A stretch of DNA of 64,000 nucleotides from Synechococcus sp. (GTDB taxonomy: Bacteria; Cyanobacteriota; Cyanobacteriia; PCC-6307; Cyanobiaceae), in NCBI GenBank assembly GCA_047285805.1, contig JBJBCN010000002.1, forward strand, positions 1,328,347 through 1,392,346. The letters are read 5' to 3'. Position numbers and translations under genes: made by a program. The notes below the pieces were generated by a model, which worked only from the letters and a program-made list of their open reading frames with translations, searched no databases and had not been told where the DNA came from. Positions 2,048 to 20,951 of this stretch are shown piece after piece (within the stretch, counting starts at the first letter, position 1; every line of letters starts with the position of its first letter).

Positions 2048-2071
2048 CTTTGCGTGCAGTTTTGCGTGCAA
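2048..2071 (+). repeat. Tandem 12-bp repeat (core TTTGCGTGCA x2), putative integrase arm site of E1
   Basis: ctttgcgtgcag ttttgcgtgcaa, ending 53 nt before the att core. Confidence 0.6.
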
Positions 2072-2124
2072 CCGGTTTTCGAGCTTCTGACGTAATCGCC
2101 AGATCGGTTGCGGCGGAATGATTG

Positions 2125-2162
2125 AAGGGGCCTTCCAGCCCCAGCGGATCATTTGGTTGATA
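2125..2162 (-). repeat. att core: copy of the tmRNA 3' end (E1/E2 junction)
   Basis: 36/38 identical to 21006-21043. Confidence 0.9.
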
Positions 2163-2266
2163 AGACTGAGTGCCCCCAAAGCGGCACAGTTCTTTTCAGG
2201 CAGATGTCTTTCTAAGCCTGAGTTTACGAAAGCCACCCACAGCAAACGAAAGCTTGCGGGAGCTAT

Positions 2267-2290
2267 TTTATCCGGAGAATTATCCGGGGA
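2267..2290 (+). repeat. Tandem 12-bp repeat TTTATCCGGAGA/ATTATCCGGGGA, left arm site of E2
   Basis: Same motif as 11585-11608; ends 1 nt before the integrase ATG. Confidence 0.75.
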
Positions 2291-2291
2291 G

Positions 2292-3530
2292 ATGGCCGCC
2301 GAAGCTTGGGAAAAGGGTTTCCGCGCTGCGATAAAAACCGGGAGACAGGGGTGGGGAGTAAGCAACGACAAGAGCACAGGCCGAGTGCGCCTAAAACTCC
2401 AGTTCCCAAAGGCGGGGGACTGGCCAAGCAATAGCTCGGTCAACCTGCCTTACGCCTGGACGCCAGCGTCGATCAACCCGGTGATCCAACTCGTCAATGC
2501 GGCCTATGGACCTGTCATGGAAGGTCAGGTCCCGCTCAAGGCGGCGATTGAGAACCTGCTAGCCATAAGCGATCAAAAAGCTGATCTGGTGCGTACAGCC
2601 TGGCCAGGCATTGCGAGATCCTTCCGCACCAAAAAGCTAAGCACAGGAAATCGAATAGCCGATAGCACTTACAGCGCTTCCTATGGGCGCTACATAGAAG
2701 TGGCCTTGCAACACCTGCAGGGTCCCAAGTCTGCTCAAACAGGAAAAGCGCTGATCGAGCGTGTACTAATCCATCAACGAACCAACAAGAAGCCCGGCAA
2801 GCGTTTCGGAGAGCAGCTCACCCCCTGGATCGATCAGCCGAAATCCCGCATGCAGTGCTGCCTAGCGCTGAAACTGTTCCTTGAGTTTGCGGTTGCCGAG
2901 CATCGACAAGCGCAGTCCTTTCTGATCATCGAAAAGGACTACCTCCAGCTTCGTGGTGGTGATGGAAGGACAAGAAAGAAGGCAGTCCTTACAGATGCGC
3001 AGATATGCGAGCTCATCAGACTGCTCCCAGAGCACTGGAGCAACGTAGTGAAGGTGTGCCGATTGTTTGGCGTAAGGCCATGGGAGATCAACTTCATCGA
3101 ACGACGCATCAACCCGGGGGGCGAACAACAGCTATTCGTCAGGAAGGGCAAAGAAGTCACCAGCCGAAGCGGTGTCAAAGAAGAAACTGAGCCCCGCTGG
3201 TTAGAAGCGGTGGCCATTGATGGAACGACATTTGGACTTGTCGAGAAGTGGGAGAGCTTGAAGCTTCCCGCAAGAGTCAGCGGGGCGAACCTAGGCGCCA
3301 GGTTGCGAAGGCTCCAGTACTGGAATTGTCTCGTTGAGGAATTCAAGGCCAACGGAGAATGGCTGCGTCCGTACTCGTTCCGAGACACCTTCAGCGTGCG
3401 TGCGCACGACCTGAACATCAGCAGCACAAACATCGCTCAAGCAATGGGCCACAGCGTTGAGGTCCATCACCGAAGCTATAGGACTTCGGAGTGGAAGGGC
3501 GTCAGAAAAGCCTTCCTCCGAGCTAGCTAA
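2292..3530 (+). CDS. Tyrosine integrase of E2
   Basis: FGVRPWEI, RPYSFRD (YxxR variant), AMGHS...Y; homologous to 11860-13149; start moved to ATG 2292 because the longer ORF crosses the att site. Confidence 0.88.
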   Translation: MAAEAWEKGFRAAIKTGRQGWGVSNDKSTGRVRLKLQFPKAGDWPSNSSVNLPYAWTPASINPVIQLVNAAYGPVMEGQVPLKAAIENLLAISDQKADLVRTAWPGIARSFRTKKLSTGNRIADSTYSASYGRYIEVALQHLQGPKSAQTGKALIERVLIHQRTNKKPGKRFGEQLTPWIDQPKSRMQCCLALKLFLEFAVAEHRQAQSFLIIEKDYLQLRGGDGRTRKKAVLTDAQICELIRLLPEHWSNVVKVCRLFGVRPWEINFIERRINPGGEQQLFVRKGKEVTSRSGVKEETEPRWLEAVAIDGTTFGLVEKWESLKLPARVSGANLGARLRRLQYWNCLVEEFKANGEWLRPYSFRDTFSVRAHDLNISSTNIAQAMGHSVEVHHRSYRTSEWKGVRKAFLRAS

Positions 3531-4828
3531 TGGGACGCCCTGCAAAAAACGAAATCGGCAACACTTATGGCTTGCTGACAGTCGTTAGCGCCGGTCCCAA
3601 AAAGGGAAGTGCTACAGCTTGGATGTGTAGATGTGCTTGCGGAAATCAAGAGCTAATCCACTGCAGTGGGACGGAGCTAAGGGGAGGAGGTCGTAAAAGC
3701 TGTGGATGTATCAACCAGACACGACTGGAAGATCTGACTGGCCAGGTATTTGGACACCTAACGGTTGTGGAGCGGGGTCCCAACATTGGGCGAAGACCAG
3801 GCTGGTCTTGTCAATGCGATTGCGGCAGCCCAAAACTTGTTCTTCTTAGAGCAGACCAACTAAAGAAAGGAATCCCTGGAGACTGTGGCTGCTCGAAAAC
3901 ACCTTATACGAAAGGTATTTATGGTCCTTTTATCGATCGCCGGACGGCACTAAAGCAGGGGTTAACGCAGTACTTCCCTGGTTCTTTATGCGCTAAAGGG
4001 CACCTATCGCCAAGAATGACCTCTGGAGGATCATGCATGGTCTGCATACGCGAGCTGGCAGCAAAGAAACAGAAGGAGGGCTATTTCCGCGAATATGCAG
4101 CCAAGCGCAGAAAAACAGATCCCGACTGGAAGGCGAATAAAGCACGAGTAGCTCGAGAGTCATACCATCGTCATAAAGACGACGAGGGTGCCAAGGAAAA
4201 GAGAAGAGATTGGTACGAAAAGCACAAGACGACTGACTGGTACAAGGAGGCTTCAAAACGAGCCAAGGCCAAGTTCGTAGCTAGTGGGAAAAAAGCCCAG
4301 GCAGATCGGGCGTATAGCCAGAGCCAGGCAGGAACGGTTGCACGCATCAAAGCTCGCAGGGCGTGGCGAGAAAAGTTTGAGGCTGAGAAGGGCATGCCCA
4401 TCAGCAGCTGGAGGCTGAAGAACGACCCTCAGTTCAAATTGCATGTCCGTTTAAATCAACGCATCAGCGACGTCTTGAAGAGGCAGGGGGTCGTGAAAGC
4501 ATCAAAAACAGTTGACCTAATAGATGCTGAAATCGTCCACTTCAAGGCTTATCTCGCAGCCAACTGGGTCGAGGGCATGAGCTGGGAGAACTACGGTCGA
4601 GATGGTTGGCACGTTGATCACATACGACCTTGTGCAAGTTTTGACCTCACGGATGAGGACCAGCAACTCGTTTGCTTCAACTGGAGAAATCTAAGGCCCA
4701 TGTGGGCCACCGAGAACATCTCCAAGAGCGATAACTATGACCCTGCAGATGAAGTCGAATGGGCTGAGATGATGGTTGAGCTTGGCTTTGAGGGTGAGCT
4801 TTTTCTCCTCTATACGACCAACGAATGA
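3530..4828 (+). CDS. Multidomain HNH endonuclease
   Basis: Two N-terminal Cys-rich repeats (G.LTV...W.C.C.CG...CGC), a CxxGH...CxxC motif, C-terminal WHVDHIRP...NLRPMWATENISK; TAATG overlap with the integrase. Confidence 0.8.
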   Translation: MGRPAKNEIGNTYGLLTVVSAGPKKGSATAWMCRCACGNQELIHCSGTELRGGGRKSCGCINQTRLEDLTGQVFGHLTVVERGPNIGRRPGWSCQCDCGSPKLVLLRADQLKKGIPGDCGCSKTPYTKGIYGPFIDRRTALKQGLTQYFPGSLCAKGHLSPRMTSGGSCMVCIRELAAKKQKEGYFREYAAKRRKTDPDWKANKARVARESYHRHKDDEGAKEKRRDWYEKHKTTDWYKEASKRAKAKFVASGKKAQADRAYSQSQAGTVARIKARRAWREKFEAEKGMPISSWRLKNDPQFKLHVRLNQRISDVLKRQGVVKASKTVDLIDAEIVHFKAYLAANWVEGMSWENYGRDGWHVDHIRPCASFDLTDEDQQLVCFNWRNLRPMWATENISKSDNYDPADEVEWAEMMVELGFEGELFLLYTTNE

Positions 4829-5034
4829 AGAGATCTGGCACCTGATCTCTTCTCAGTTTTCACCAGGCTTTAGCATGGTTAACGGGGAAGGGGGAATCTC
4901 TACCAACTGCGGATCTTTGCCCTAGCGTTAACTCACTTTTTAACCTGACGCTAGACGAACCGTGCGCCTCCGGATGACCCACATAGATTGACCCAACAAG
5001 GACCCGACTAAACAGATTCAGTATTATGACTGAA

Positions 5035-5493
5035 TCATTCTTCGATAAACCTTGTTGTAGGCATGCCCTTGACAGAGGCAACTGTAACCCAGACGATCGT
5101 CGGCTCTTTACCGACATTTTCTACATAATGGGGCTCGTTGGCACCTTCAACAAATGCCTCACCGGGCTTGAAAACAGTTTTAACTTCAGTCCCGTCAGGC
5201 TGAACCCGAGTGTTGAGTAATGAACCAGATCTGACACCTTGCACGTAAACCATCATTGGAGCAGGGTGAGTATGCAGGGGAATCTTTCCTCCAGCAGGAA
5301 TTTCAACTCGATAGAGGCGCAGCTCTGGTTTGCCTGAGGGGTACTTAAGAGCAGTTCCGTTCAGTGTTTCTGAACTACTAAGGATCTCCTGAATCGCAGG
5401 TTTCGTTGAAGTTGACGACGTTTCACCTTTTTGATTAGGACTACATGCAGCCAATGCCAGGGCGACGGTTCCGAACGCGAGAAGGCGCTTCAT
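5035..5493 (-). CDS. Cupin-domain lipoprotein
   Basis: Lipobox LAAC; cupin motifs PLHTHP and GEAFVEG...HYVEN. Confidence 0.8.
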   Translation of the reverse strand: MKRLLAFGTVALALAACSPNQKGETSSTSTKPAIQEILSSSETLNGTALKYPSGKPELRLYRVEIPAGGKIPLHTHPAPMMVYVQGVRSGSLLNTRVQPDGTEVKTVFKPGEAFVEGANEPHYVENVGKEPTIVWVTVASVKGMPTTRFIEE

Positions 5494-6164
5494 CCAAGTT
5501 GAGATGCTGGGTTGATTCTGCACCAACTAGTCGCAACAAGCTACGGAATAAGCCCGAGGGAGTGATGCTCCTCGGGCGGAACTGCACCGCTGCAGGAGCT
5601 TTCGCGGTTATGCGATCGCGTCCTGCATCGCAGCGAAGCTTTCAGGGTGTCTGACGGGGGAACGCTCATCCGAGCCTCTGAGCGGCCTCCCAGTACAGGC
5701 ACGCTGTCTTGACTATCGGAGGTCCGTCCTTGAAAGGCAATGCGCATAAAGCCTGATTGCCCTCTGTTCGAATCAGGCCGATGGTGGGTCCATCGATCTC
5801 GGAGGCGTTTTGGACGACACTCCACCTCAGAAGCATCAGTGAGCTAGCTGACTGCAGACCCCTGCTCCACAGCTCTTTCTCATCCACCACGGGCACGTCC
5901 TAAATCTCGGTTCTGCCGGGGGACACTCCATCCGCACCCAGTGAGGTGCCCTAAGGAGCAAGAAGGCCCGCCAACTGGAAGCACGGCCCCAGGCGTCGAG
6001 ATCAGAAGCTCCATCCATCTCTTTCGTCCATCAAGCAGTGGGTGCATCCCATGCATGAACGACCTAGGTAGGCCGTCTCTTCCACCGGGGAGGGGCGGCC
6101 TTCCTTAATGAGTCGTAATTGGCGTTGCGGAGCGTCGGTCAAAATAGGGTGTCGCTTCAGAACT

Positions 6165-6452
6165 ATGCGCAAGCTTCTGCTCGGGACATTCGCAGTCTTG
6201 GCGGCTGCCCTTCCACTTGCGGCGCAGGAACTTTCGAGCCCCGACGGGACCGCTCCTGATGCGCCAGCACCTGCTGTCGAGCCACCCTCCATCTGGCTCG
6301 TTTTGCGATACGGAGTAGGCGGTCCTGGAGCGCTAGAAAAAATAGAGATGCGAGACATGGCGCAATGTGAAATGCAAGGTGCCATTTGGGAGTCAAGTAA
6401 GCGCCTCAGTGAAGGTGGTTACACAGGTTTTGAGTGTATGGAAGGCAAATGA
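6165..6452 (+). CDS. Small secreted hypothetical protein (cassette gene A)
   Basis: Signal peptide; QCE.QGA.W..S.R and GFEC.EG motifs shared with 17726-18040. Confidence 0.75.
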   Translation: MRKLLLGTFAVLAAALPLAAQELSSPDGTAPDAPAPAVEPPSIWLVLRYGVGGPGALEKIEMRDMAQCEMQGAIWESSKRLSEGGYTGFECMEGK

Positions 6453-6976
6453 AAAGATTTAGAGCCGCATTATTGGTATCCGCGTCAATCTCATGTCTTG
6501 GCATGAATCCTGCTTTCGCCGACTTTGGAGATGCAGACTTTCCTGAAGCCCTGTTTAACGACGGTCCCCGCAGCTATCACGATGCTTGGTGCCGAAGGAT
6601 AAAGAACAAGTGTCGGGTGCGCTTCCAGGGAAAGGGAATGTGGGTCGAGGGGCAAGGCGGGATTCAGCGCTCGCAACTAAAAAGTTTCAGAACAGATTTT
6701 GACGGAAACGAGTTCTATAACTATGTGGACTACATATCGTCGGAAGGCCGCCTTAAAAGTGCGTTATTCATGTTTTCAAACTTTGAAGCCAACAGGGAGT
6801 TCCTTCGCGCAGTGGTGAGGTGGCAGCGAATGGATGCAAGCCCAGTGCCGAACTTTCGTTTTCCAGCAAGCCAGGGTCCACAGGACACGCATGGTCGAGA
6901 TAAGAGCTACGGCAGGAACAACAATCCTTATGCCAATCCGCCAATTACTGACTGGAAAGAAAAGACCACGCCCTAG
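6449..6976 (+). CDS. Secreted hypothetical protein (cassette gene B)
   Basis: Signal peptide ending AFA; ATGA overlap with gene A; close homolog of 17127-17651. Confidence 0.8.
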   Translation: MKRFRAALLVSASISCLGMNPAFADFGDADFPEALFNDGPRSYHDAWCRRIKNKCRVRFQGKGMWVEGQGGIQRSQLKSFRTDFDGNEFYNYVDYISSEGRLKSALFMFSNFEANREFLRAVVRWQRMDASPVPNFRFPASQGPQDTHGRDKSYGRNNNPYANPPITDWKEKTTP

Positions 6977-7024
6977 CGGTAGGCCTGGTTGGTCGTAATC
7001 AGCCTTGCGGTGTCACAGACTTGC

Positions 7025-7384
7025 TCACGCCATCAGCGAATGAATGATCTTAATCAGTTCTGCTTTGGTGAGCTTCTCTAAGGGCGGTGGTGGTGCTTGA
7101 ACATTATTTTCCTTTAACAACTTACATAGAGCTGACTTGTTCAGGCCAGAGAATCGCTTTAGTCCGTTCTCTTTACAGAGACTTCGCAGGGTCTTCACCG
7201 ACTGCTTTTCAAAGCTGCCTTTGCCGAGGAGCAAACTTAGTCTGTCTTCACCCTTAAGTCGGCCTGCGCCTGAATTGCCTTGATTCGCTTTTTGAAGTTC
7301 TTCGCTGATTTCGCGCAGGCTGCGTGCATCCGATTGCGCAACCTCTCTTAAGTTGGCCCTAAGGGCTTCAGAGATCTTTCCCAT
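7025..7384 (-). CDS. Hypothetical protein with Rho-N/HeH-like motif
   Basis: SVKTLRSLCKENGLKRFSGLNKSALCKLL; overlaps the upstream gene. Confidence 0.7.
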   Translation of the reverse strand: MGKISEALRANLREVAQSDARSLREISEELQKANQGNSGAGRLKGEDRLSLLLGKGSFEKQSVKTLRSLCKENGLKRFSGLNKSALCKLLKENNVQAPPPPLEKLTKAELIKIIHSLMA

Positions 7385-7877: not shown

Positions 7878-7919
7878 GAGCTTCTAGAGAAGAATCACAA
7901 GGGGGAATGACTCATCACA

Positions 7920-8745: not shown

Positions 8746-8827
8746 CGCTGTTCAGCCTGGTCCTTATCCGAAGTTTCTAGCACACAAGGTGTCTACACCC
8801 CGTGCTCACCCGGGCTACACTTATTTC

Positions 8828-8986
8828 ATGCCCACGACCAAGCCCCGAGTCGGCTGGATCATTGATCCCACGCTGCTCGACAAGCTCAAGGAGCTTTCCG
8901 ATAAGAGCGGCCGTACCGTTCCCAAAGAGGCTGAACAGGCGATTAAGAACTGGCTTCAGCTCCACGGGAAGCTCCCCGTCGATTGA
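8828..8986 (+). CDS. Ribbon-helix-helix (CopG/Arc-like) regulator
   Basis: 52 aa: beta strand RVGWII, then helix-SGRT-helix; divergent from the four-gene operon. Confidence 0.65.
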   Translation: MPTTKPRVGWIIDPTLLDKLKELSDKSGRTVPKEAEQAIKNWLQLHGKLPVD

Positions 8987-9066
8987 AGCTCGGTCCTGGC
9001 CGCTGATCATTCGTAGGGCTGGTTACGTCAGTGGACTTGGCCCGTCTCTGTCAGTTCAGCGGCAAT

Positions 9067-9312: not shown

Positions 9313-9318
9313 AGTCAC

Positions 9319-10689
9319 TCAGCTACTCATTGCTTTGAGCACCTCCTCGACAGGGCGAAAGAGTGATGCGGGGGCACCTCCCCGCCTCCCGTTCGAGTCT
9401 CTGAACCCGTCCTCAACGATCAGATGTTTGCGCTCTAAAGCCAGGAGCGTCTCCCTGGCCTTTTGAGGAGCATTCACCTCAATCCCCAAGGCATTGCCTA
9501 AGTGAACCGCATCCATACCCCTCTTGGTGGAGAGGTAGTGATGACATAGGTCTTTGAGCGCCTTGTACTGACGATCTGTGAGGTCGTCGAGCACTCCCTG
9601 AATTGCAGCTTGCCTTGCAACCTCCTCGCCGGATCCATGAAGGATCCAGCCAGTGTTGGTTTGCTCTATCAAGAGGTCAATTGGAGCTGACTCGCGGCCC
9701 TCTGCCATCAGCTTGCTCCGCTTGTCTCGTTGAGCGAGCGGGTTGTCATCGCCGTCCCCAAGAGACGCGATAGCAAGGGTTTGGCTCACGGCTCCGGGCA
9801 GAGCGTTATTGCCTCGACTGGCCTCTGAGGCCCGCAATGCACCAGGCCGTTTTTTTGCGTGGTGGATCAACAGCAGCGTTGCCTCGTGGGGAGCAAGTGC
9901 TTCTGTCAGATCGATGCAGGGGTCAGCAAAGGAGGCATCGCACTCCTGCAGCCCAAGCCTGCTGGTGAGTGCGTGATAGCTGTCGAGCAAAACGATCAAC
10001 CCTGGGTAGCGGGTGCAGTAACCGGCAATTCGCTCGATGCCTTCCTCATCCATTGAAAGGGGCGCACCCTTATGGAAGAGGCTGACGATTGACGGGTGCA
10101 TGCTCCGGTCTGGGTAAAGCAGGCCGGCACGCTTGAGGCATATCGCCCAGTCCCGTTGAGGTTGGTCGCTGCCAACGATCAGGATTTTGGGGTCCGGCCA
10201 TGGATGCAGAGGCTGTCCCAAGAAGGACGTTTCACCACGGACCAGAGCGCCAAGGACGGCGCACATCAGCCGTGATTTGCCGACCTTTGGAGGGCCAACG
10301 AACAGGTTGCTCGTTGCCTTAAGCAGGACGTTCTCCCAGAGCCAAGGTGCTTCTTCGAAGGAAAGCTTTCCGCCTTGTGGGATGGGCTCAACGGCGCCCA
10401 TCAGCTTTCGCCGCTCTTGCCCAAGTAGGCGGCGCATTTCGTCGTCTCGGACGCGCGTCTGAAGTTCAGATGCGGTTCGGCGTAGGTGGATAAGCCGCTG
10501 ATGGCTGGGAATGGCCTCATCGCAAAGGAGATCCCGCGCCTTCCTCTGCAGGGTGCGTAGGTCCTCTGCTGCCGATGGCTTGCGTCGAGGGGTGGGGTCA
10601 ACGCGTTTGAGCTGACCCTGAACGCGTTGTTGCCGTTCCCTTTGATCAAACGCGTCTGAGTTGTCGAGATATGCAAGTGGATCGCTCAT
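9319..10689 (-). CDS. RepA/AAA_25-type ATPase, putative replicative helicase
   Basis: Walker A GPPKVGKS, Walker B IVLLDS, LLIHHAKK; GAGGAGG RBS and ATGA overlap support start 10689. Confidence 0.8.
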   Translation of the reverse strand: MSDPLAYLDNSDAFDQRERQQRVQGQLKRVDPTPRRKPSAAEDLRTLQRKARDLLCDEAIPSHQRLIHLRRTASELQTRVRDDEMRRLLGQERRKLMGAVEPIPQGGKLSFEEAPWLWENVLLKATSNLFVGPPKVGKSRLMCAVLGALVRGETSFLGQPLHPWPDPKILIVGSDQPQRDWAICLKRAGLLYPDRSMHPSIVSLFHKGAPLSMDEEGIERIAGYCTRYPGLIVLLDSYHALTSRLGLQECDASFADPCIDLTEALAPHEATLLLIHHAKKRPGALRASEASRGNNALPGAVSQTLAIASLGDGDDNPLAQRDKRSKLMAEGRESAPIDLLIEQTNTGWILHGSGEEVARQAAIQGVLDDLTDRQYKALKDLCHHYLSTKRGMDAVHLGNALGIEVNAPQKARETLLALERKHLIVEDGFRDSNGRRGGAPASLFRPVEEVLKAMSS

Positions 10690-10946
10690 CTCGACCTCCT
10701 CGCCCACCGGGCCATTCGGAGGCAGCCGATCGGGTCTTGGCGCTCCAGAAGCGTTGCTGCTCGGTCGTAATCCGCTGAAGACCAGGTTTGTTCGCTGGTG
10801 AGACGCAGCAGCTTGCCGGTCAGATCAACGGAGTCCAGAGGCCGCGAAAAATCTCCGTAATGCCGCCAGCGGTAGCGCTTAGCGACAATTAGGTTGTCGT
10901 TAGACATTTCTTCGCGACCCCCAGCGCCAACTGGGGGTTTTTTCAT
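10686..10946 (-). CDS. Hypothetical protein
   Basis: ATGA-coupled to both neighbours. Confidence 0.6.
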   Translation of the reverse strand: MKKPPVGAGGREEMSNDNLIVAKRYRWRHYGDFSRPLDSVDLTGKLLRLTSEQTWSSADYDRAATLLERQDPIGCLRMARWARRSR

Positions 10947-11206
10947 GCCCGAACCTGCACGAGGGGCTGGTGCAGACCGAAGGTTTCTACTGAAGAAGCA
11001 GGCATACGCCGAAAACCTGTAAAGGCGGCTTCAGTGGTGGCGATATTCCACTGGAGTGATCCTGCTGTTGTCATTCCAGACCATCGGTAGTGACTTCCCT
11101 CGACAAATGGGCTGCGCCCATCACGACGCAGCTTCAACAGCGTCTGCCTGTGAATACCAAGGTGGTCAGCCATTACGGCCGAACTCACCCAACTTTGAAT
11201 TTTCAT
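10943..11206 (-). CDS. Excisionase-like HTH DNA-binding protein
   Basis: MADHLGIHRQTLLKLRR...PFVEGSHY; homolog of 13529-13798. Confidence 0.72.
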   Translation of the reverse strand: MKIQSWVSSAVMADHLGIHRQTLLKLRRDGRSPFVEGSHYRWSGMTTAGSLQWNIATTEAAFTGFRRMPASSVETFGLHQPLVQVRA

Positions 11207-11584: not shown

Positions 11585-11608
11585 TTTATCCGGAGATTTA
11601 TCCGGAGA
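11585..11608 (+). repeat. Perfect tandem TTTATCCGGAGA x2, right arm site of E2
   Basis: Ends 51 nt before the att core; matches 2267-2290. Confidence 0.78.
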
Positions 11609-11659: not shown

Positions 11660-11697
11660 AAGGGGCCTTCCAGCCCCCATGGATCATTTGGTTGATA
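11660..11697 (-). repeat. att core: copy of the tmRNA 3' end (E2/E3 junction)
   Basis: 37/38 identical to 21006-21043. Confidence 0.9.
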
Positions 11698-11810
11698 GGC
11701 ATGATCCACAGGATTACGGAAGGAGTGGCCGCAAGCGATTTCGCCGTAAAGCCAGTCAGAGACTAATCCCAAAGACAGTCCTTGACAGTCGTAGGCGGTC
11801 AGACAAAACT

Positions 11811-11838
11811 AATTTGTCGGAAATTTGTCGGAAATTTG
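11811..11838 (+). repeat. Tandem 11-bp repeat AATTTGTCGGA x2 plus a partial copy, left arm site of E3
   Basis: Core TTTGTCGGAA also at 20928-20951. Confidence 0.75.
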
Positions 11839-11859
11839 CCCAGGCGGAACCTGTCCTCC

Positions 11860-13149
11860 ATGCCCCTGTGGGAGATGCGCCTGGTCTCCATTGCGGCCAA
11901 GTGGCCGGGATGGAGCATCACCAATGACAAGGGCTACGTCTGCGTTCGATACCGCGTAGCTGGGCAGCCAAGGCAACAAGTCAACCTGCCGAAGCTCCGG
12001 TACCGCGAAGAGGACGAAGTTGCGGCCATCACCATGGCCAGGCAGCTCTTCAAGGTTTGGGACAAGGCAGGAGGGGGGCTATCGCTGAAAGCAGCCTTAA
12101 TTGAGGTCAAGGGCTCCTGCGATTCAGAGGGGTCGGCACAGGTCGTCACCTGGGGGCAGATCGTTGAGGCCATGCGCGAGGCAAAGGTCGAGAACGGCCG
12201 CAAGATCCAGCCCCAAACCTGGAAGACCAACTGGGCGCCGATCCTCAACCAAGCAGTGAGAGTTCTCAGCAGGAAGAACGCGCCGGCTGATGGCTACGAG
12301 TTGCTCAAGGCCGTTCAGAAGCATTGGAGCCACGCCCCCGCCACTCAGCGCGAGTGCGCCCGATACCTCAGTCGCTGGATGGAATTTGCAGAGCGGCGAT
12401 ACAAGGTCCCGCGGAGCTGGTTGATAACCGAGGCCGACAGGCAGGAGCTGGCGCCCCGAGCGCCCAAGCGAAGGAAGAAGGCCGTCCTGGAAGACGTTGA
12501 GATCTTGGAGTTCGTCGAACTGGTCGAGGCCCACAGCCCAGCCTGGTCGAACGTCTTCCGCCTGTGCGCGCAATACGGGTTACGACCGACTGAACTGCAG
12601 TACCTGTCAATCGTTAAGGACCCGATCACAGGCCAGCGGACGTTCTGGTGTTCGTACGAAAAAGACGCCGGCGGTGAGGCAAGTACAGAGCCTCGGTACC
12701 TGCGGGCCATGTACTTGCGGGACGCTGACGACAGGCCGGTGCAGTGGCCACTGATCGATGCGTGGGAGGCAGGAACACTGGCTCTTCCTCAGGACAGGAA
12801 CGGCGGGCTACGCAAGCTGAGCGGTTCTGCTGTGAATACCTACCTGGCGCGCCAGGGCAAAGACGGCGGCCCTGCCAGTGCGGTTCAACGATGGTGGAAG
12901 GCCAAGGTCGCCGAGTACGCATCAAAGCCCCAGCCCGAGTGGCTGAGGGCTTATTCGTTTCGGGACAGCTACAGCGTCAGGTGCCATCGCGAGGGCCTTC
13001 CGCTGGATGTGATTGTCAATGCGATGGGCCATTCCCACCAGGTCCATCAGCAGAGCTACCGAACCGTCACGAACTCAATCGTGGCCCGGGCTTTCGAATC
13101 TTGTGCCACAGATTTGCGGCTCCCGTCTACACCAGATACGGAGGACTGA
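11860..13149 (+). CDS. Tyrosine integrase of E3
   Basis: YGLRPTEL, RAYSFRDSY, AMGHS...Y; RRKKAVL motif shared with the E2 integrase. Confidence 0.88.
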   Translation: MPLWEMRLVSIAAKWPGWSITNDKGYVCVRYRVAGQPRQQVNLPKLRYREEDEVAAITMARQLFKVWDKAGGGLSLKAALIEVKGSCDSEGSAQVVTWGQIVEAMREAKVENGRKIQPQTWKTNWAPILNQAVRVLSRKNAPADGYELLKAVQKHWSHAPATQRECARYLSRWMEFAERRYKVPRSWLITEADRQELAPRAPKRRKKAVLEDVEILEFVELVEAHSPAWSNVFRLCAQYGLRPTELQYLSIVKDPITGQRTFWCSYEKDAGGEASTEPRYLRAMYLRDADDRPVQWPLIDAWEAGTLALPQDRNGGLRKLSGSAVNTYLARQGKDGGPASAVQRWWKAKVAEYASKPQPEWLRAYSFRDSYSVRCHREGLPLDVIVNAMGHSHQVHQQSYRTVTNSIVARAFESCATDLRLPSTPDTED

Positions 13150-13814: not shown

Positions 13815-15788
13815 ATGCTCAATAAACAAGCGCGCCAACAATGGCGCGAGGACGTTCATCGTCTGAACGGGTTTCCACTCCTGCCTTGTGGCGGGGGTGC
13901 AAGTGGGAAGGCCCCACTAATCAAGAGCTGGCCAACAGCTAGCTGCAGCCCTGAAGAGGTGCTGGCGACACCCGGACTCCGCAGTGTCGGCATCCGCCTT
14001 GGGCCCGATGCCGGAGGGCTGGTCTGCATCGACTACGACGGCGCATCAGCCGTTGATTACGCCGCCGGCTTTGGCCATGACGCAAGGGAACTTACGTCCT
14101 GGGTCATTGGCCGCGACAGCGATGCGGATCGGTTCAAGGCCGTCTACCGCGTGGGCGAGAACGACTGGGGGGCACTCCCTGGGAAGACCGTCCACAGCAC
14201 CGGTCCCGGCGAGCAAGTCGAGGTCTTCTTCAAAAGCGGACAGGTCATCGTCTTGGGCGAGCACGTCCCAAGTGGCGGCCATTACCGCTGGCTTCACGGA
14301 GGGCCTGAGTCAATCGAACCCCTCCCCCGTGAGTTGGCTGAAATGTGGTTTGCGGCCATCGCCAGCAGCCCTAGCTCAACCGCCCGCGGGGGGCGCGGCG
14401 AATGGCGGGATTGTGTGCCCTGCACGATTTGCGGCAGGACCGAACCCGACTGTCGAATCAGCGGCGACGGGCGAACGATTGCTTGCCACCGGGGCATCAG
14501 GTGGACCCCTCCATTCCTGAAGCCTGGGGAGACGATCAAACGAGGCGACACCTCCTGGGCCTACTGCGGCGAGACCCAGACAGCGGTGGGGGCAGCGGCG
14601 CTCTTCAAAATCGACGAAACGCAAGTGCCATTGCGAAAGAAGCCGATGGTCCCTCCAAGTGAGGGGCTTCGGCTGATGAGTCAGGAACTGCATGGTGTCC
14701 CACGCCTCAATGTGCGGACGCGCGCAATCCACGTCGAAGACCAGGTGTTCACCGCTGAACAAGCGGCAAACGTTTACCTCGGCCTGTCGCAACGGGGGCG
14801 GTACTGCTGGCCCAAGCAACTAGCCGTCGATTGCCTAACGGCATTGGCCTCCAAAAACGAGTTCGACCCCGTCCGGGACTATCTCGACTCGATCAGAGCG
14901 GAGCCGCTGCCAATGGAGCAGTGGGACCGTTTGGACAGGTTGCTCTTCGGAACCGACGACACCATCACCGCGGCATTCTTCAAGCGGTACTTGGTTAGCG
15001 CGGTTCAAAGGGTCTTCGAACCCGGGTGCCCGCAAAGGATCTTGCCCGTTTTGGTCGGGCCACAAGCCATCGGGAAAACCACCCTGGGCAGTGCACTATT
15101 CGGCGTTGAGTTCTACGGCGATGCCGTCAGCGGCAACGCAAAGCTCGACGTTGATGACATCACCTCGATGGGTCTGACGTGGGCCACCGAGCTGGCCGAG
15201 CTAGACGGCCTTACTCGGAAGGCTCAAACGGCGTCGCTGAAAGCCTTCGTCTCTCGCACTCACGACCTCATCAGGAGGAAGTACCACCACGGTTCGGAGC
15301 GGGTGCCCCGGCGCAGTGTGTTGTTTGGCACTAGCAACCAGTGGCCGCTGAATGACCCAACAGGGTCAACGCGGTTCTGCCTGATCTCGCTGGGCAAAAA
15401 ACCACTCCCCTTCAACGAAGTCGCTCAGCTGCGCGACAACATTTGGGCGAGGGCTTTGGTCCAGTACCGCGACGGCTACCAGCCATTTCCAACCGCTCAA
15501 GAGGCCAAGGAAATTGCTGAACGCAATGCCTGTTACGACCCTGAGGATCCGCTTGAAGGCAAGCTCAGGCGCCTAGTCGAGCGAAAGGCGAGCGCGCCAT
15601 ACATCACGTTGGACGAAGTGCTCGATTTCATCGGCGCAGATCCAACAGGCTCGCCACAACTAAGCGCACGGCTCAATGTCGTTATGGCGCAACTGGGCTG
15701 GGACAAAAAGCGCCTCAGGTTCAACGGGCAAGGAAAAGTCTCTGCGTACTGGCCTGCGGCCAGGGAGGGCAGGGATGAAAGCGCATAA
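13815..15788 (+). CDS. Prim-Pol primase/polymerase fused to a VirE/VapE-like ATPase
   Basis: N-terminal GKAPL..W, GIRLG...CIDYD, H..G..Y.W; CxxC motif; Walker A GPQAIGKT; FDPVRDYL, DPTGSTRF. Confidence 0.85.
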   Translation: MLNKQARQQWREDVHRLNGFPLLPCGGGASGKAPLIKSWPTASCSPEEVLATPGLRSVGIRLGPDAGGLVCIDYDGASAVDYAAGFGHDARELTSWVIGRDSDADRFKAVYRVGENDWGALPGKTVHSTGPGEQVEVFFKSGQVIVLGEHVPSGGHYRWLHGGPESIEPLPRELAEMWFAAIASSPSSTARGGRGEWRDCVPCTICGRTEPDCRISGDGRTIACHRGIRWTPPFLKPGETIKRGDTSWAYCGETQTAVGAAALFKIDETQVPLRKKPMVPPSEGLRLMSQELHGVPRLNVRTRAIHVEDQVFTAEQAANVYLGLSQRGRYCWPKQLAVDCLTALASKNEFDPVRDYLDSIRAEPLPMEQWDRLDRLLFGTDDTITAAFFKRYLVSAVQRVFEPGCPQRILPVLVGPQAIGKTTLGSALFGVEFYGDAVSGNAKLDVDDITSMGLTWATELAELDGLTRKAQTASLKAFVSRTHDLIRRKYHHGSERVPRRSVLFGTSNQWPLNDPTGSTRFCLISLGKKPLPFNEVAQLRDNIWARALVQYRDGYQPFPTAQEAKEIAERNACYDPEDPLEGKLRRLVERKASAPYITLDEVLDFIGADPTGSPQLSARLNVVMAQLGWDKKRLRFNGQGKVSAYWPAAREGRDESA

Positions 15789-15879
15789 CTCCCCTTATTA
15801 CCTACCCCCTCTCTCTCCAGTTATGGAAAAAACCCCTGACCACCCCGCCCACTCATCCACCAACCCCCTGAACTCCACC

Positions 15880-16329
15880 ATGTCTCAGACAAAGCAACTC
15901 CCCGAAGGCATCCAATTCAGCGACGTCTACATCACTGACACAGTCAGTCAGCCAGCCCGTAAAGGACTGATCGACTCCAGTCAGCTATTGAAGTCTGATT
16001 GCCACTATCTAAAGCTCTGGAGCGAAGCGGAAGTAATCAGCGAACAGGCCCTCTACGACTGGCAGGTTGAAATCAACAACTGGCAGATCGACATTGAAGA
16101 CAAGGTCCGCCACAACGGAGGAATACCTCACGGATGCATTAGGGACGGGAACGGAAAGTTCCTCTACATGTGCGAACCGATCTGGGTGATCGGCAAGGGT
16201 GGTGACTACTGGTTCACCGTCTTCAACAACACGCCAGAGACAATGGCCTTCACCTCCCTGCGCGATGCCTGCATGTTCGTGCAGGGCTGGAAGCTCAAAA
16301 CGCACGGACCAGACTCAGAGATGGGCTAA
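15880..16329 (+). CDS. Hypothetical protein (start uncertain; 15775 possible)
   Basis: Open frame with gene-like codon use, ends just before a terminator. Confidence 0.6.
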   Translation: MSQTKQLPEGIQFSDVYITDTVSQPARKGLIDSSQLLKSDCHYLKLWSEAEVISEQALYDWQVEINNWQIDIEDKVRHNGGIPHGCIRDGNGKFLYMCEPIWVIGKGGDYWFTVFNNTPETMAFTSLRDACMFVQGWKLKTHGPDSEMG

Positions 16330-16336
16330 ACGTTCT

Positions 16337-16367
16337 GCCCCCGGGGTCTGACCTCGGGGGCTTTTTT
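16337..16367 (+). terminator. Intrinsic terminator
   Basis: GCCCCCGGGG...CCTCGGGGGC followed by T6. Confidence 0.8.
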
Positions 16368-16417
16368 GTGACGTAACCAGCCTTACGGGCCATGCTGGGC
16401 TGAGCCGCCTTCATGTC

Positions 16418-17056
16418 GTGCTTCGCCTTCTCGTAGCCCTTGCCGCCCTCAGCGCAGGGACAGCCTTGGCCCAGGGGCAGGTCGACCCCGCCATTCACAA
16501 GCTCTGCATTGAGGCGAAGGACTATGCAGGCTGCGTCAGAGCAATGAAAGGCGAGCCAGCTCCCACCACTCGCATCATCAATTCAGCAGGTGCTGAAGTG
16601 GCGGAAGGTAATCAATGCCCTGCATCTATGGCTTACAGGGGTGGGGGTAATTGCCAGGAAGTCATCTGTGCTGACCATGGGATGTGGTTCGTTGGGCCTC
16701 ATAACCCGCTGCTTGCCGGTAAGACATGGAAATGCACTGGAGGCGGGATTGGCAGCCCAGGGAGATTGGCTTGGGGTGCGACCACCGCAAGAGCTTCTCA
16801 GAATCCAAACTGCCCCGCTGGTGAAATAGAGATTGGATACAACAGCACTTGCGACAAACCTCCATTTGGATGGGAAAGCCCTGCTGCCAAGGCTGCACGC
16901 GAAGAAAGGGAAGGCCCTAAGTGCGACTTCAAGCTCAAGGCATACAAGTGCAGCTACAACGCGTACCTCGATGCCAACCCAGGCATGAAGAAATGGGCTG
17001 AACTAAACCCGGAACTTGCCCAAAAAGAAAGGCTCAAGCTGCAGTCAGTTGACTAA
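16418..17056 (+). CDS. Secreted cysteine-rich hypothetical protein
   Basis: Signal peptide ending ALA-Q; many Cys; HKLCIEAKDYAGCVRAM motif. Confidence 0.72.
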   Translation: MLRLLVALAALSAGTALAQGQVDPAIHKLCIEAKDYAGCVRAMKGEPAPTTRIINSAGAEVAEGNQCPASMAYRGGGNCQEVICADHGMWFVGPHNPLLAGKTWKCTGGGIGSPGRLAWGATTARASQNPNCPAGEIEIGYNSTCDKPPFGWESPAAKAAREEREGPKCDFKLKAYKCSYNAYLDANPGMKKWAELNPELAQKERLKLQSVD

Positions 17057-17126
17057 CCACCAAGCAATCTCTCTGCAACTTGCCCAGTAGTTACGCAAGG
17101 CTGATTACGACCGACCAAGCCTGCCG

Positions 17127-17651
17127 CTAAGGAGTGCTCTTCTCTTTCCAGTCCGTAATAGGCGGGTTGGCATAAGGATTGTTGTTCCTTCCATAGCTAT
17201 TATCCCGACCGTGAGTCTCCTGAGGCCCTTGACTCGCAGGAAGTCGATAGTTAGGTATGGGTTGAGCGACCTGCTTCTTCCAGCGGAAGAATGCTCTTAA
17301 GAATTCGTTTTGCGCGACTGGATTGGCAAACAGAAAAAGAGCCACCCTGGGCTCACCACTCGAGGAAACATATCGGAGATAATTATAATACTCGTTACCG
17401 TCTATATCGTACTTAAATCCTAGATACTGATTCGATTGAATGCCACCTTGACCTTCGACCCACATCCCCGGACCCTGAAAACGTATTCTGCATTGATTCT
17501 TGAGTTTTCGGCACCAGGCGTCGTGGTAACTCTTAGGCCCTTCATTAAAGGCACCCAAGGGAAAGTCTGCATCACCAAAATCAGCAAACGCTGCTCCGGG
17601 TAACGCAACGGCTGAGGCCAAGCAAAGCTTTGCAAGGAATCCCTTTATCAC
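17127..17651 (-). CDS. Secreted hypothetical protein (cassette gene B')
   Basis: AFADFGDADFP...YHDAWCR...NNNPYANPPITDWKEK shared with 6449-6976. Confidence 0.8.
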   Translation of the reverse strand: MIKGFLAKLCLASAVALPGAAFADFGDADFPLGAFNEGPKSYHDAWCRKLKNQCRIRFQGPGMWVEGQGGIQSNQYLGFKYDIDGNEYYNYLRYVSSSGEPRVALFLFANPVAQNEFLRAFFRWKKQVAQPIPNYRLPASQGPQETHGRDNSYGRNNNPYANPPITDWKEKSTP

Positions 17652-17725
17652 TTACTGCTCTCCATTCATGCAAATCTCCACATTTGCCATAGCCGCATGG
17701 GGACATTGAAGACCACTCTGCACTT

Positions 17726-18040
17726 TCATCTTGCCCCTTCAAAGCATTCGAATCCTCTGTACTCAAGAGGTTGGTCTAAGTAGGTAGGGATTCTGCTGGA
17801 TGCCATCCATTTCGCCCCTTGCTCCTCGCACTGGTCAAGCGACTTCATTGGAAGACTCACAATTCCATTGCCTCTTAAAGACTTCCCAAGCGTGAGTACA
17901 AGATACGTAGGTGAGTCGGGTCTAGCTTCCACAGGCAACTCCTCAACAGTTGTGACAGGTTCCAGCGGTTGCAGTTCTTGTGATACTGCAGGTAATGAGG
18001 CTGTTATGACTGCGATTGATCCAATTACAAGCTTGCGCAT
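17726..18040 (-). CDS. Small secreted hypothetical protein (cassette gene A')
   Basis: MRKL signal peptide; QCEEQGAKW and GFECFEG as in 6165-6452. Confidence 0.75.
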   Translation of the reverse strand: MRKLVIGSIAVITASLPAVSQELQPLEPVTTVEELPVEARPDSPTYLVLTLGKSLRGNGIVSLPMKSLDQCEEQGAKWMASSRIPTYLDQPLEYRGFECFEGAR

Positions 18041-18090
18041 GTTGGGAACCTGGCTGCCCTCCATGTTGCCCTAGCACACCGCAACGGTAA

Positions 18091-18447
18091 TTACGACCAA
18101 CGCTGGTGGCGGACGTGGCTGTTCACGCCCAGGCCACACAAGGCATCTAGCTCTCTGCAAGCGCCGACAACAGCGCCAGGGTTTCGCTGTTTGAGCGCGA
18201 CCCCTACGGCCGCCTGGAGCTGGGAGACGCACCAGGCCAAAAGCTGTCGTCGATCACAGCCAGCGCCTTCCACGTCGGCCTCTATCTGCGCCCAGGCTTT
18301 CTGGATCAGCCGATAGCCCTGGCTTCGTGAGACCCCCCACTGTTGTCGCGCAAAAGCGACACAAGAGGAGTTGCTGGTCCCTTCCAGGATCAGTCGCTGC
18401 AGCTCGTCGACTCGGTCTCTGGTGACTGAGGCGGTCGCTCGAGGCGT
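18091..18447 (-). CDS. HTH protein resembling a cyanophage terminase small subunit (start codon unclear; ACG at 18447)
   Basis: RVDELQRLILEG...FARQQWGVSRSQGYRLIQKA pattern, recalled as similar to the small genes preceding terL in cyanophages. Confidence 0.5.
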   Translation of the reverse strand, partial: TPRATASVTRDRVDELQRLILEGTSNSSCVAFARQQWGVSRSQGYRLIQKAWAQIEADVEGAGCDRRQLLAWCVSQLQAAVGVALKQRNPGAVVGACRELDALCGLGVNSHVRHQRWS

Positions 18448-18602
18448 TCCATTTCCAGGTCCAGGACGAAGAGCAACATTTCCCTGTGGGCCAAGGCCGT
18501 CATCCCGACAAACATCGGCACGACCTTCTGCAGAACGCTCGGGTGGTGGGTTGCTGTTGCCGCAATTGCTTTTGCGACCGCCTGGACCTCGGAGCTGATC
18601 AT
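18390..18602 (-). CDS. Hypothetical protein
   Basis: ATGA-coupled to 18599-18940. Confidence 0.4.
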   Translation of the reverse strand: MISSEVQAVAKAIAATATHHPSVLQKVVPMFVGMTALAHREMLLFVLDLEMERLERPPQSPETESTSCSD

Positions 18603-18940
18603 TCATCCAACAGCGCGCTGAGTTGTGCGCACAGCTCCTCCGCCGCGGCCTGTTCCGCGAGCTTTGAGCCGACAAGGCTGTGAACCTCACTGCCGATCGC
18701 TTCTGACCGCCGACGCAGCTGTTCGCAGTGCTGTTGAATCTGGCCGCGATACCGATCTTGTCGAGCAAGAGCAGGTAGCTGCTCACGCCACATCCAATCG
18801 ATGAAGCCGGGGGCAGGGCCTGCCCGCTGCTGGTCGGGATCGTTGTCGCGCTCAGTGATCAAGCGATCCATGGTGGCGCTGTAGTCGCGCCCTTCCAGCT
18901 TCAGCCAACCGAGTTGGGGATGAGATTTAGCGACCCTCAC
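18599..18940 (-). CDS. Hypothetical protein
   Basis: GTGA-coupled to 18937-19341. Confidence 0.6.
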   Translation of the reverse strand: MRVAKSHPQLGWLKLEGRDYSATMDRLITERDNDPDQQRAGPAPGFIDWMWREQLPALARQDRYRGQIQQHCEQLRRRSEAIGSEVHSLVGSKLAEQAAAEELCAQLSALLDE

Positions 18941-19341
18941 TGGCCAAGCCTCCGGTTGCTGTAAGGCTGTACCCCGCGTGCGAATGACTGCTCAACGTGG
19001 TGGCGGCGGGCGGCATTTTGACGACGCAGCCGTTCGGTTTGAGCCTCAAGCGATTTGACCCGCAAAGCCCTGGCCTCCTGGTCTTCCTCCTCCCGGATGT
19101 GAGCGTCAGAGGGGACGCCCAAGTAGGAAGCAAGCTCAGGGTCATGCTTTGCCAGTAGCGATCGCAGGGTCAACGACTTCGCCAGTGCGGCGGTGTCGAA
19201 GGGGCGGCCGTAACCGCGGGGTGGCAGTAGCTCAGCGGCCCCGTCGATCTTTTTGATCCGAGTTTCGATCGCCCGCGCCTGGGTCTCAGCGTGGGTGACG
19301 TTCTGATGGGCCTCCGCGACTTCTTTATTTAGATCAAACAT
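18937..19341 (-). CDS. Hypothetical helical protein
   Basis: 134-aa ATG ORF in a coupled operon. Confidence 0.62.
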   Translation of the reverse strand: MFDLNKEVAEAHQNVTHAETQARAIETRIKKIDGAAELLPPRGYGRPFDTAALAKSLTLRSLLAKHDPELASYLGVPSDAHIREEEDQEARALRVKSLEAQTERLRRQNAARRHHVEQSFARGVQPYSNRRLGQ

Positions 19342-19495
19342 GAGCAGACTTACGGCGCGCTTGGGGATTAGTCAGTGGCGATTCGGGAGCATTTGGCAGG
19401 TCATCATCGATCAGGTGACGCTCAAGCCTTGCCTCATCTTGTAGCTCACGAATTGCTAGCTCACCTAACAATGAGAGCTGTGTTCTGCTCTTCAT
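19334..19495 (-). CDS. Small hypothetical protein (53 aa, absent from the ORF track)
   Basis: MKSRTQLSLLGELAIRELQDEARLERHL...; stop overlaps the start of the next gene by 8 nt. Confidence 0.45.
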   Translation of the reverse strand: MKSRTQLSLLGELAIRELQDEARLERHLIDDDLPNAPESPLTNPQARRKSAHV

Positions 19496-19549
19496 CTTCT
19501 AGGGTCCGTAGATACGAATCTATTCTAGTGACAAAGTTATAATCTAAAT

Positions 19550-19615
19550 GTCGGGAACGCCATCCCTGACTGGTTACCGGTGTGGGCGCGGGAGTCGATC
19601 TCCCGCTTTTTCTTT
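19550..19615 (+). ncRNA. Candidate small RNA (~65 nt)
   Basis: TATAAT at 19538-19543, 5' hairpin, terminator GCGGGAG-5nt-CTCCCGC-T5; no ORF. Confidence 0.45.
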
Positions 19616-19935
19616 GCTAATCTAGTGGCCGAGCAGGGGTCGCCCGCGTTCGCCACATAGGGATAGCAGGTGTTGGCCACTATCCCGCAAAAAGGGGGGC
19701 AGGTATTAACCACCCCCCATTTTTGTTGGCTGTAGACGGCCTAAGACGATTTAACGCAATCGCAGTTACGTCTGTTCTTTCTCAAATCGCTTTCTTCGCA
19801 GCTCGCGGCAGAAGCTGCACATGCAAACAAAGTCGTCACCCTTGGCCCCGTAACCGTTGAGGCCACCAACACCCCAGCGAGTGTGCATCGTCCACCGGAA
19901 CATCACGGCCAGCTCTTCGTCAGAGGGAACCGCCA

Positions 19936-20907
19936 TCAGCCCAACCTCAGCGACGAACTATCCGCAGGATTAGCGGCGACGTAGCCACCAGTCGTCGATG
20001 CCGACGAATGGCCCAGCGTGCACTGCAGCGTGAACACGTCGCACCCCCTGCGAATGGCATGGGTCGCGTGGGTGTGGCGGCACCGGTGCGGATGAAGCCG
20101 GACCCCAGCCTCTTGGCCCCACTTCGCCATTCGACCGGCGACTGCCTGACGGGTCAGGGGGCCGTCCCGACGATCAGAAGGAAACAGCCATTCCTCCGCC
20201 TCGCCGCGGCCGAGCGACTCGAACAGCGCGAGTGTCTCCTTACTTGTACGAACGGTGCGGGCCTTTGATCCCTTCCCAAGCAAATGAATCTGGGCGCCGT
20301 CTTCCAGGGGCTCGATGTCCTGCCAGCGCAAACGGCACAACTCGGTGACGCGACAACCGATCAGGTAGCTGCCTTTGACCATGACGAAGTCGCGCGCGGC
20401 TGTCCCACGGCCCCGGTCGGCGGCCGCGGTCATCGCCTGGGCGATCGTGGCCAGCACCATGCCCAACTCGTCATCGGTCAAAGCCTTGGCGAGCTTGGGA
20501 GCGTGCAGGGTGGCTCGGCGGGGCATTGGGTTTCGGGGAACTCCCGTCACCGCAGAGCGGGTGGGCTCGGAGGCCCAGCGGTACATGGCACTGACGGCAC
20601 TGATGCGGCGGTTGAAACTGCGCGGCTTGAGTTCGTCTGCCGACACCATTTCCCGCAGCGAGGACACCCAGTCATCAACGAGGGCCGGGTCCAACTCCCG
20701 CAGGTGCAGGTGGGGGTGAAGCTCATCTCGCCAGCGAACGAAATGGCGCAGCTCTCGGGCGTAGCCGTTGATGGTCTCCTGGCTCCCGGTGCGGCTGCAC
20801 TGTTCGAGGAAACGCTTCAACAGAAGGTCGTCTCCCCACAGGGTGGCCCCTGCCGTGGCGGCGTCGAACAGACGCGAGACGTAGGCCAAAGCCTCCGCCT
20901 TATCCAT
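19936..20907 (-). CDS. Xer-like tyrosine recombinase, copy 2 (intact motifs)
   Basis: GCRVTEL, HPHRCRH, LGHSS, TTGGY; start set by identity to copy 1. Confidence 0.9.
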   Translation of the reverse strand: MDKAEALAYVSRLFDAATAGATLWGDDLLLKRFLEQCSRTGSQETINGYARELRHFVRWRDELHPHLHLRELDPALVDDWVSSLREMVSADELKPRSFNRRISAVSAMYRWASEPTRSAVTGVPRNPMPRRATLHAPKLAKALTDDELGMVLATIAQAMTAAADRGRGTAARDFVMVKGSYLIGCRVTELCRLRWQDIEPLEDGAQIHLLGKGSKARTVRTSKETLALFESLGRGEAEEWLFPSDRRDGPLTRQAVAGRMAKWGQEAGVRLHPHRCRHTHATHAIRRGCDVFTLQCTLGHSSASTTGGYVAANPADSSSLRLG

Positions 20908-20927
20908 GCCGCTTAAGACCGGCGGGA

Positions 20928-20951
20928 TTTTGTCGGAAGTTTTGTCGGAAA
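20928..20951 (+). repeat. Tandem 12-bp repeat TTTTGTCGGAAG/TTTTGTCGGAAA, right arm site of E3
   Basis: Ends 54 nt before the att core; core matches 11811-11838. Confidence 0.75.

Follow-up and report, generated by a model that had tools for sequence, protein, structure and literature searches.

Element-specific doublets beside a shared att core, and the integrases that may read them, in elements stacked at a cyanobacterial tmRNA gene

How might several integrative elements with related tyrosine integrases occupy one attachment site without interfering with one another? The question is raised by a stretch of 64,000 nucleotides (nt) of the 2.37-Mb picocyanobacterial genome of a Synechococcus sp. 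(contig JBJBCN010000002.1, positions 1,328,347 to 1,392,346; hereafter the window, whose own numbering is used below). The integration target is the permuted, two-piece gene for transfer-messenger RNA (tmRNA; 20986..21295, reverse strand), and a 40-nt attachment (att) core from the 3' end of that gene has exactly three copies in a whole-genome search, all on the forward strand: at 2125..2164, at 11660..11699 and, within the tmRNA gene itself, at 21006..21045. These copies delimit the elements E2 (9.5 kb) and E3 (9.3 kb), which are two intact integrative elements at the tmRNA 3' end, and the right end alone of a third element, E1, whose junction with E2 is the first copy. All three junctions are bridged by contigs from three sequencing runs, possibly the source of the assembly. 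At the ends of these elements stand doubled motifs that differ from element to element, and which are probably arm-type sites, each suited to the integrase of its own element.

Doublets at the ends of the stacked elements

An earlier note on this DNA had claimed that each element carries its own tandem repeat at both ends, with the geometry kept while the motif differs, and five doublets are indeed present within 1-2 nt of where it placed them, all on the forward strand. E2 has TTTATCCGGAGA at 2267 followed by an imperfect copy, ATTATCCGGGGA, at 2279 (2267..2290, directly before the integrase ATG at 2292), and two copies of TTTATCCGGAGA at its right end (11585..11608). E3 has TTTGTCGGAA at 11813 and 11824, with a period of 11 and a repeated run that begins at 11811 (11811..11833), and again at 20929 and 20941 with a period of 12 (20929..20950). 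The right end of E1 carries TTTGCGTGCA at 2049 and 2061, also with a period of 12 (2049..2070). The three copies of TTTATCCGGAGA and the four of TTTGTCGGAA are the only ones in the genome. The right doublets of E1, E2 and E3 end 54, 51 and 55 nt ahead of the att core, and the left doublets of E2 and E3 begin about 102 and 113 nt past it; the distances first given, 53, 51 and 54 nt and 104 and 113 nt, agree with these within 0-2 nt, varying with how the core is cut. Each element thus has its own doubled motif of about 10 nt at fixed distances from a shared core. Exact doublets (at least 9 nt, period 10-13) number 117 in the whole genome, about 0.05 per kb, which is the chance rate; six fall in the window, and four of the six lie at att arms, the left doublet of E2 not being among them because it is imperfect.

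A doublet at both ends is borne out for E2 and E3, and for E1 the claim holds at the right end only in this assembly. A left end of E1, consisting of a doublet, an integrase and another att copy, had been predicted to lie left of the window and is absent: no further att copy, E1-type doublet or tmRNA-type integrase was found there, the search having covered the region left of the window and the whole genome with att pieces, degenerate doublets and tblastn queries from the integrases of the window and of L188. Because the assembly holds no left end, att copy or integrase for E1, this element is read as a remnant, and its doublet as an orphan arm whose cognate integrase is not in the assembly. 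The E1 motif does occur at both ends of L188, a complete 12-kb tmRNA element of another genome, and L192 is an E3-like element that carries the E3 motif. A low-GC island (window 3-950; 11313-18787 of L001) extends about 12 kb left of the window, encodes a solute-binding protein, an iron-uptake porin and a phycobilisome linker, and is possibly old E1 cargo. Another low-GC stretch (0.44-0.48), at 59001-62000, has a chance-level doublet at 60195.

Matched ends and arm geometry among relatives

The doublets of the window are instances of a general arrangement. Scanning metagenomes gave 40 loci and scanning genomes 6; a profile search covered 401 genomes of the family, and its best 150 matches were used while 841 more fell outside the sample. 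In all, 140 regions were taken and 4 loci from the profile search kept, and the sample is biased toward the top-scoring integrase matches. Two scans of viral contigs found no relatives. From 182 profile matches came 154 distinct full-length integrases, 147 of them with enough upstream DNA, both integrases of the window included; by att class, 81 belong to tRNA-Pro, 39 to tmRNA and 11 to other targets, with none assigned for 16 (two tRNA-Pro-like rows, apparently mis-called tmRNA, lie outside the training set). A blind search that required at least 9 of 10 matches between copies found a doublet near the integrase start in 108 of the 147, against 5 of 441 control windows inside genes. Perfect inverted pairs were present in 12 of the 34 integrases without a perfect direct doublet, against 1 of 102 controls; in the subclass with an inverted left pair (L093, L119, L120, L124, L126, L135, L143 and L187), the right arms are direct where seen.

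The two ends of an element match. Of 46 complete elements, 37 have a doublet of their left motif at their own right end as well, whereas swapping ends within an att class gives such a match in 32 of 820 combinations. Every one of the 20 tmRNA elements is matched in this way (18 of 18 if those of the window are set aside), compared with 12 of 380 swaps, and eight of those twelve are pairs that share a motif. In 102 of the 147 integrases both copies agree at six core positions, yielding 48 motifs of the form TTTG-N5, with 16 types at tmRNA and 26 at tRNA-Pro; the other 45 integrases were left out of the covariation work described below. All motifs share the T-tract, and most have G4, C7 and C9. 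The left arm differs from the nearest right arm in L082, L083, L132 and L205, possible hybrid or nested elements.

Spacing is equally regular. Right doublets end 61-63 nt ahead of the att pattern in 20 of 20 tmRNA elements, and left doublets, sought 85-122 nt past the pattern, start at 92-95 nt in 47 integrases, at 104-108 nt in 36 and at 115 nt in 3 (86 in all), steps of about 11 nt that suggest helical phasing. Repeated sites therefore flank the core on both sides at conserved spacing, as arm systems do. The region between the core and the left doublet contains, at many loci (for example L049-L078, L008 and L013), weak repeats with a period of about 10 bp, CTGTC-like in tRNA-Pro elements and GAGAGT-like in tmRNA elements, which are candidate Xis sites.

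The same spacing bears on whether the doublets are simply operators, serving autorepression of int on the left and control of right-end genes such as xer on the right, with no role in recombination. Left doublets do end 1-2 nt before likely start codons, and in E1 and E3 the gap between right doublet and xer start is 21-24 nt. Autoregulation by the integrase IntS at attL is, moreover, documented for KplE1 (PMC2951348), where int is likewise transcribed from attL with arm sites just upstream, although the promoter overlap and the repression described in that report belong to KplE1. The conserved distance, however, is that to the att core, not that to the start codon, which varies from 4 to 58 nt in tmRNA elements; most right ends have no xer; and promoter scans found no sigma70-like promoter at either left arm. 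A purely regulatory role is thus very unlikely, whereas autoregulation of int from the left arm, in addition to an arm function, is plausible.

The integrase N-terminus and a partial residue-base code

If the doublets are arm-type sites, their motifs should follow the part of the integrase that binds arms. The earlier note had proposed just this, that divergent integrase N-termini read the different motifs, and had named covariation of motif and integrase across genomes as the check; the check was run, and the covariation is there. The motif is shared in 41 of 45 pairs whose N-termini are at least 75% identical, and in 42 of 112 pairs whose C-termini are at least 75% identical; where close C-termini are combined with distant N-termini, the motif differs in 47 of 50 pairs, these pairs being non-independent. 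On FastTree trees, parsimony accounts for the 48 motifs with 50 changes when the tree is built from N-termini and with 59 when it is built from C-termini. By these comparisons the motif tracks the N-terminal domain and not the catalytic part, and together with the matched ends, the phased spacing and the residue covariation described below this argues that the doublets act as arm-type sites.

The integrases of E2 (412 amino acids; 2292..3530, forward strand) and E3 (11836..13149, forward strand, probably starting with the TTG at 11836, as L175 and L192 indicate when compared with it, the next ATG being at 11860) are 28% identical, and each opens its element and faces inward. The tyrosine integrase of the window matches phrog_1. 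In the E2 protein, a helix, three strands and a helix (residues 5-76) are predicted ahead of core-binding and catalytic domains. The AlphaFold model (pLDDT 95) has an N-terminal helix, strands at 21-26, 31-36 and 48-55 and then a helix, and two models agree on these strands and on a helix at 58-76, the three-strand-plus-helix arrangement of arm-binding domains. Its top fold match is full-length lambda integrase (1z1b), over 410 columns.

Within this domain the association can be resolved to single residues. In a set of 71 dereplicated integrases and 380 alignment columns (E2 residue numbering), the top column for motif positions 5, 6, 7, 8 and 9 is residue 35, 24, 33, 26 and 27, respectively. 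The pairings are E/Q35 with C5 (19 of 22), R/K24 with G6 (24 of 27), R33 with C7 (44 of 48), D/E26 with G8 (9 of 10) and R27 with C9 (41 of 43). In the trio L216, L092 and L094, residue 26 is D, S or Q, and position 8 is the one place at which their motifs differ. Residues 24, 26, 33 and 35 are predicted to face outward, because they alternate with hydrophobic strand residues, and 27 would sit at the turn. Arginine opposite G, and aspartate or glutamate opposite C, is textbook read-out chemistry, which the observed pairings fit. When independent pairs were drawn on the C-terminal tree, five of seven pairings were supported (median p 0.008-0.03; same-direction pairs 7.6 vs 0.1, 8.0 vs 0.5, 6.6 vs 0.4 and 5.8 vs 0.3), and four mismatched residue-base pairings, used as controls, had no support. 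In leave-cluster-out prediction the true motif reached a median rank of 8 of 48, compared with 24 for the background, and for 12 held-out elements the median rank was 7 vs 14.5 of 54, with improvement in 9 of the 12.

A number of observations weigh against this reading. Nine of the 46 complete elements have no end match, with two or more mismatches; three of these (L120, L124 and L199) are explained by an inverted left pair that contains the right motif, and the six unexplained ones are possibly hybrid or nested elements. Among independent pairs, two of the pairings, R33-C7 and Q37-A4, fell short of significance; when the N-terminal tree was used, D/E26-G8 was the sole pairing with p<0.05; and a co-change test over 33 disjoint pairs ranked only residue 27 first. 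Position 4 is confounded by phylogeny, catalytic-domain columns scoring higher, and was not accepted as part of the code. The number of bases predicted correctly barely exceeds the background, at 276 of 426 vs 255 in leave-cluster-out prediction, with columns chosen on the same data, and at 50 of 72 vs 48 of 72 for the held-out elements. On the structural side, the isolated N-terminal domain matched the solved arm-binding domain 3jtz weakly (Z 3.9, root-mean-square deviation 3.8, 62 residues aligned, rank 16) and gave no Foldseek match, and no arm-domain Pfam family was matched across 70 members. Finally, physical linkage ties the left doublet to the N-terminal codons. On balance, the covariation argues for a residue-base code that is real but partial and context-dependent, with modest power of prediction.

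That linkage is the basis of an alternative in which the doublets are bound by another protein of the element, such as an Xis- or AlpA-like helix-turn-helix protein, an Xer or a replication protein, and the motif follows the integrase N-terminus only because both lie in one recombining block. Tens of bases separate the left doublet from the N-terminal codons, and the circular form would make right arm, core, left arm and N-terminus contiguous; E2 has a weak xis-like gene, and a study of HE-PICI elements leaves AlpA open as the binder of a doubled motif (PMC10111431). Linkage, however, gives no reason why five of 380 columns should stand out, placed alternately along one face of a hairpin and paired as arginine-G and acidic residue-C, nor why the mismatched pairings should fail. 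Xer in particular was rejected as the motif reader: near-identical xer genes stand beside different motifs, and an xer is found at the right end of only 4 of the 46 complete elements, all at tmRNA. A reader other than the integrase is accordingly improbable, though somewhat less so than a purely regulatory role.

Arm-type binding by the integrase is the preferred reading and is held with good confidence, because the same motif stands at both ends of an element and covaries with the N-terminal beta-hairpin of that element's own integrase; with such sites, each integrase would be restricted to the element that encodes it. On the lambda paradigm, recognition of the tmRNA core would fall to the catalytic and core-binding part. 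The integrase would act as a tetramer whose N-terminal domains fill two half-sites on each arm, four altogether and spaced in phase with the helix, and loop the arms onto the core. Motif positions 5-9 would be read through the major groove by residues 35, 24, 33, 26 and 27, on the side of the sheet predicted to be exposed, and position 4 possibly by residue 37. Whereas the sequences, geometry, covariation and mosaicism are direct observations, the binding, the looping and the lack of cross-talk are what this model would predict.

How such specificities change is suggested by integrases with similar bodies. Disjoint pairs with C-termini at least 80% identical comprise 11 pairs with different motifs and 16 with the same motif. 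In the former, 135 of 201 four-fold degenerate sites differ in codons 1-60, which is near saturation; in the latter, 139 of 485 differ, like the rest of the gene, and downstream of codon 60 the fraction is 0.34-0.42 in both sets. In L216/L094 and L061/L092 the spacer from att to doublet is 93% identical, and the proteins past residue 60 have an identity of 94-99%. These data are most simply read as old N-terminal alleles having been recombined, together with the left doublet, onto conserved catalytic bodies, and new specificities would spread by the transfer of this block of left doublet and N-terminal codons. The right arm could move with it, since in the circle both arms and the N-terminus would lie within about 450 bp.

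Neighbouring elements, gene content and known systems

Stacked elements can excise independently only if neighbours differ in motif. At 47 of 92 junctions the right doublet of the neighbour is visible at the conserved distance, and it has the same motif in one of the 47; neighbours thus almost always differ, as independent excision needs. This is no departure from chance, about two same-motif neighbours being expected from motif frequencies, and with 48 motifs the test has low power. Contigs of four runs, which drop rare forms, contained no circle or empty-site joint at the att cores. A metagenome joint from 2023 to 20994 (shallow, with a side of 26 nt) may be an E1-like end abutting tmRNA or an artefact of the xer paralogues and was not used. 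Mutual orthogonality of the integrases, and selection for it among neighbours, are plausible but unproven.

On another view, the doublets may be arm sites whose diversity has nothing to do with keeping neighbours apart, having arisen by co-drift of protein and DNA or by selection to escape repression or free-riding by resident integrases; similar motifs may then still permit cross-talk. The chance-level neighbour counts are in keeping with this, as are the several neighbours that lie one base apart (L081, L217, L216, L092 and L094) and the T-tract, G4, C7 and C9 that most or all motifs have in common. Set against it are the low power of the neighbour test and the observation that swapped N-terminal alleles have diverged almost to saturation at synonymous sites although the bodies that carry them are nearly identical, which suggests long-maintained diversity rather than simple drift. 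We regard this explanation of the diversity as a serious one, if on the whole somewhat doubtful.

E2 and E3 differ in their replication genes: E3 has a Prim-Pol/VapE primase-helicase near int (13815..15788, forward strand), and E2 has an AAA_25 (RepA-like helicase) gene (9319..10707, reverse strand) and a small HTH_17/excisionase-like gene (10943..11206, reverse strand; weak matches below cut-offs), a candidate directionality factor, at its far end. Inverted arms of repeated GAAGGTTTT units just past the stop of the AAA_25 gene (9214-9312) are a candidate replication origin, and an 84%-identical second copy of that gene lies elsewhere in this genome, at G000:C2 549773-551155. Cargo includes cupin and HNH-like genes, among them an HNH/endonuclease VII-like gene of E2 (3530..4828, forward strand), and most has no family match; no capsid or terS match was found among 24 proteins. 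Homologous cargo in E2 (6165-7013) and E3 (17094-18101) is oppositely oriented, 71-88% complementary and without family matches.

XerC/D-like tyrosine recombinase genes lie at the right ends of E1 (1062..2024, reverse strand) and E3 (19936..20907, reverse strand), and are 93% identical to each other. In the 300 nt leading to the start codon the two genes have 95% identity, yet the adjoining doublets differ at aligned columns; the motif does not follow xer, which is a passenger. The HxxR motif reads YxxR in the E1 copy, which departs from the E3 copy by other substitutions too, suggesting decay and possibly impaired function. This genome has two further, distant integrase homologues, at G000:C2 164173-165381 and 388925-389461, one beside a tRNA-Ala gene. 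Ten kb into L188, a 1.9-kb block is 82% identical to G000:C2 157316-159185, which lies about 6 kb from this genome's tRNA-Ala integrase.

In organisation E2 and E3 are most likely akin to tycheposons, elements of marine picocyanobacteria at tRNA-Pro and tmRNA genes (Hackl et al., bioRxiv 10.1101/2020.12.28.424599), with which they share an inward-facing tyrosine integrase at one end, a small replication module beside or opposite it and flanking partial-tRNA repeats; relatives of the window integrases occur at tRNA-Pro and tmRNA across the family. The main text of the preprint, which groups integrases by target tRNA, contains none of the words 'arm', 'N-terminal' or 'binding site'; in the present sample the integrases of one tRNA class divide further, by a second layer of specificity, into many motif types. 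Arm-binding N-terminal domains and arm sites are themselves established, in lambda Int, Tn916 and HPI (PMC8138268), and the present integrases resemble that type in their three-strand-plus-helix domain on a core-binding and catalytic body and in arm repeats near the core. They differ in an extra N-terminal helix, in the lack of a Pfam arm family match and in a hypervariable reading head with a partial code and allele swapping. HE-PICI elements are reported to carry a doubled motif twice, co-oriented and at fixed distances, 81 bp to one side of the attP centre and 132 bp to the other, and four arm half-sites are the proposed reading (PMC10111431), which is the geometry seen here. There one motif serves the clade while attB varies, whereas in the present elements it is the motif that varies, together with the integrase N-terminus, and attB that is shared; the elements of the window also differ in their target, tmRNA rather than a late gene of a helper prophage, and in their motifs, which are unlike the HE-PICI TGTATTGC.

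Phage 21 and e14 were reportedly found by Wang et al. in 1997 to use different integrases at one attB with distinct attP specificity. Those are two unrelated elements, in contrast to the dozens of specificities within one clade, exchanged by recombination, that the present relatives suggest. A search of titles and abstract openings in the open literature, with subscription literature largely outside it, found no account of arm motifs that vary widely among integrases using one attB, of an arm domain with a residue-base code or of swapping among N-terminal alleles; arm doublets are known, but an arm specificity at one attB that is hypervariable, residue-coded and swappable did not turn up in that search.

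What, then, might these doublets mean for the elements that carry them? Close to evenly poised, and put forward tentatively, is the possibility of a natural orthogonality system, in which one attB serves dozens of non-interfering integrase-arm pairs, specificity follows a partly predictable beta-hairpin code, and a cassette of about 250 bp, made up of the left arm and the N-terminal codons, is swapped between elements, much like incompatibility groups. Element ends can already be matched from sequence, as where L188 supplies the integrase type for the orphan end of E1, and the relatives offer about 100 natural protein-site pairs for beta-sheet recognition of DNA, a mode with few solved examples. 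If true, the system would let elements remain stably stacked in tandem and would supply a programmable set of integrases that share a landing site; it may also explain how numerous elements whose integrases are related can sit side by side at one tRNA or tmRNA gene without excising each other or leaving in blocks.

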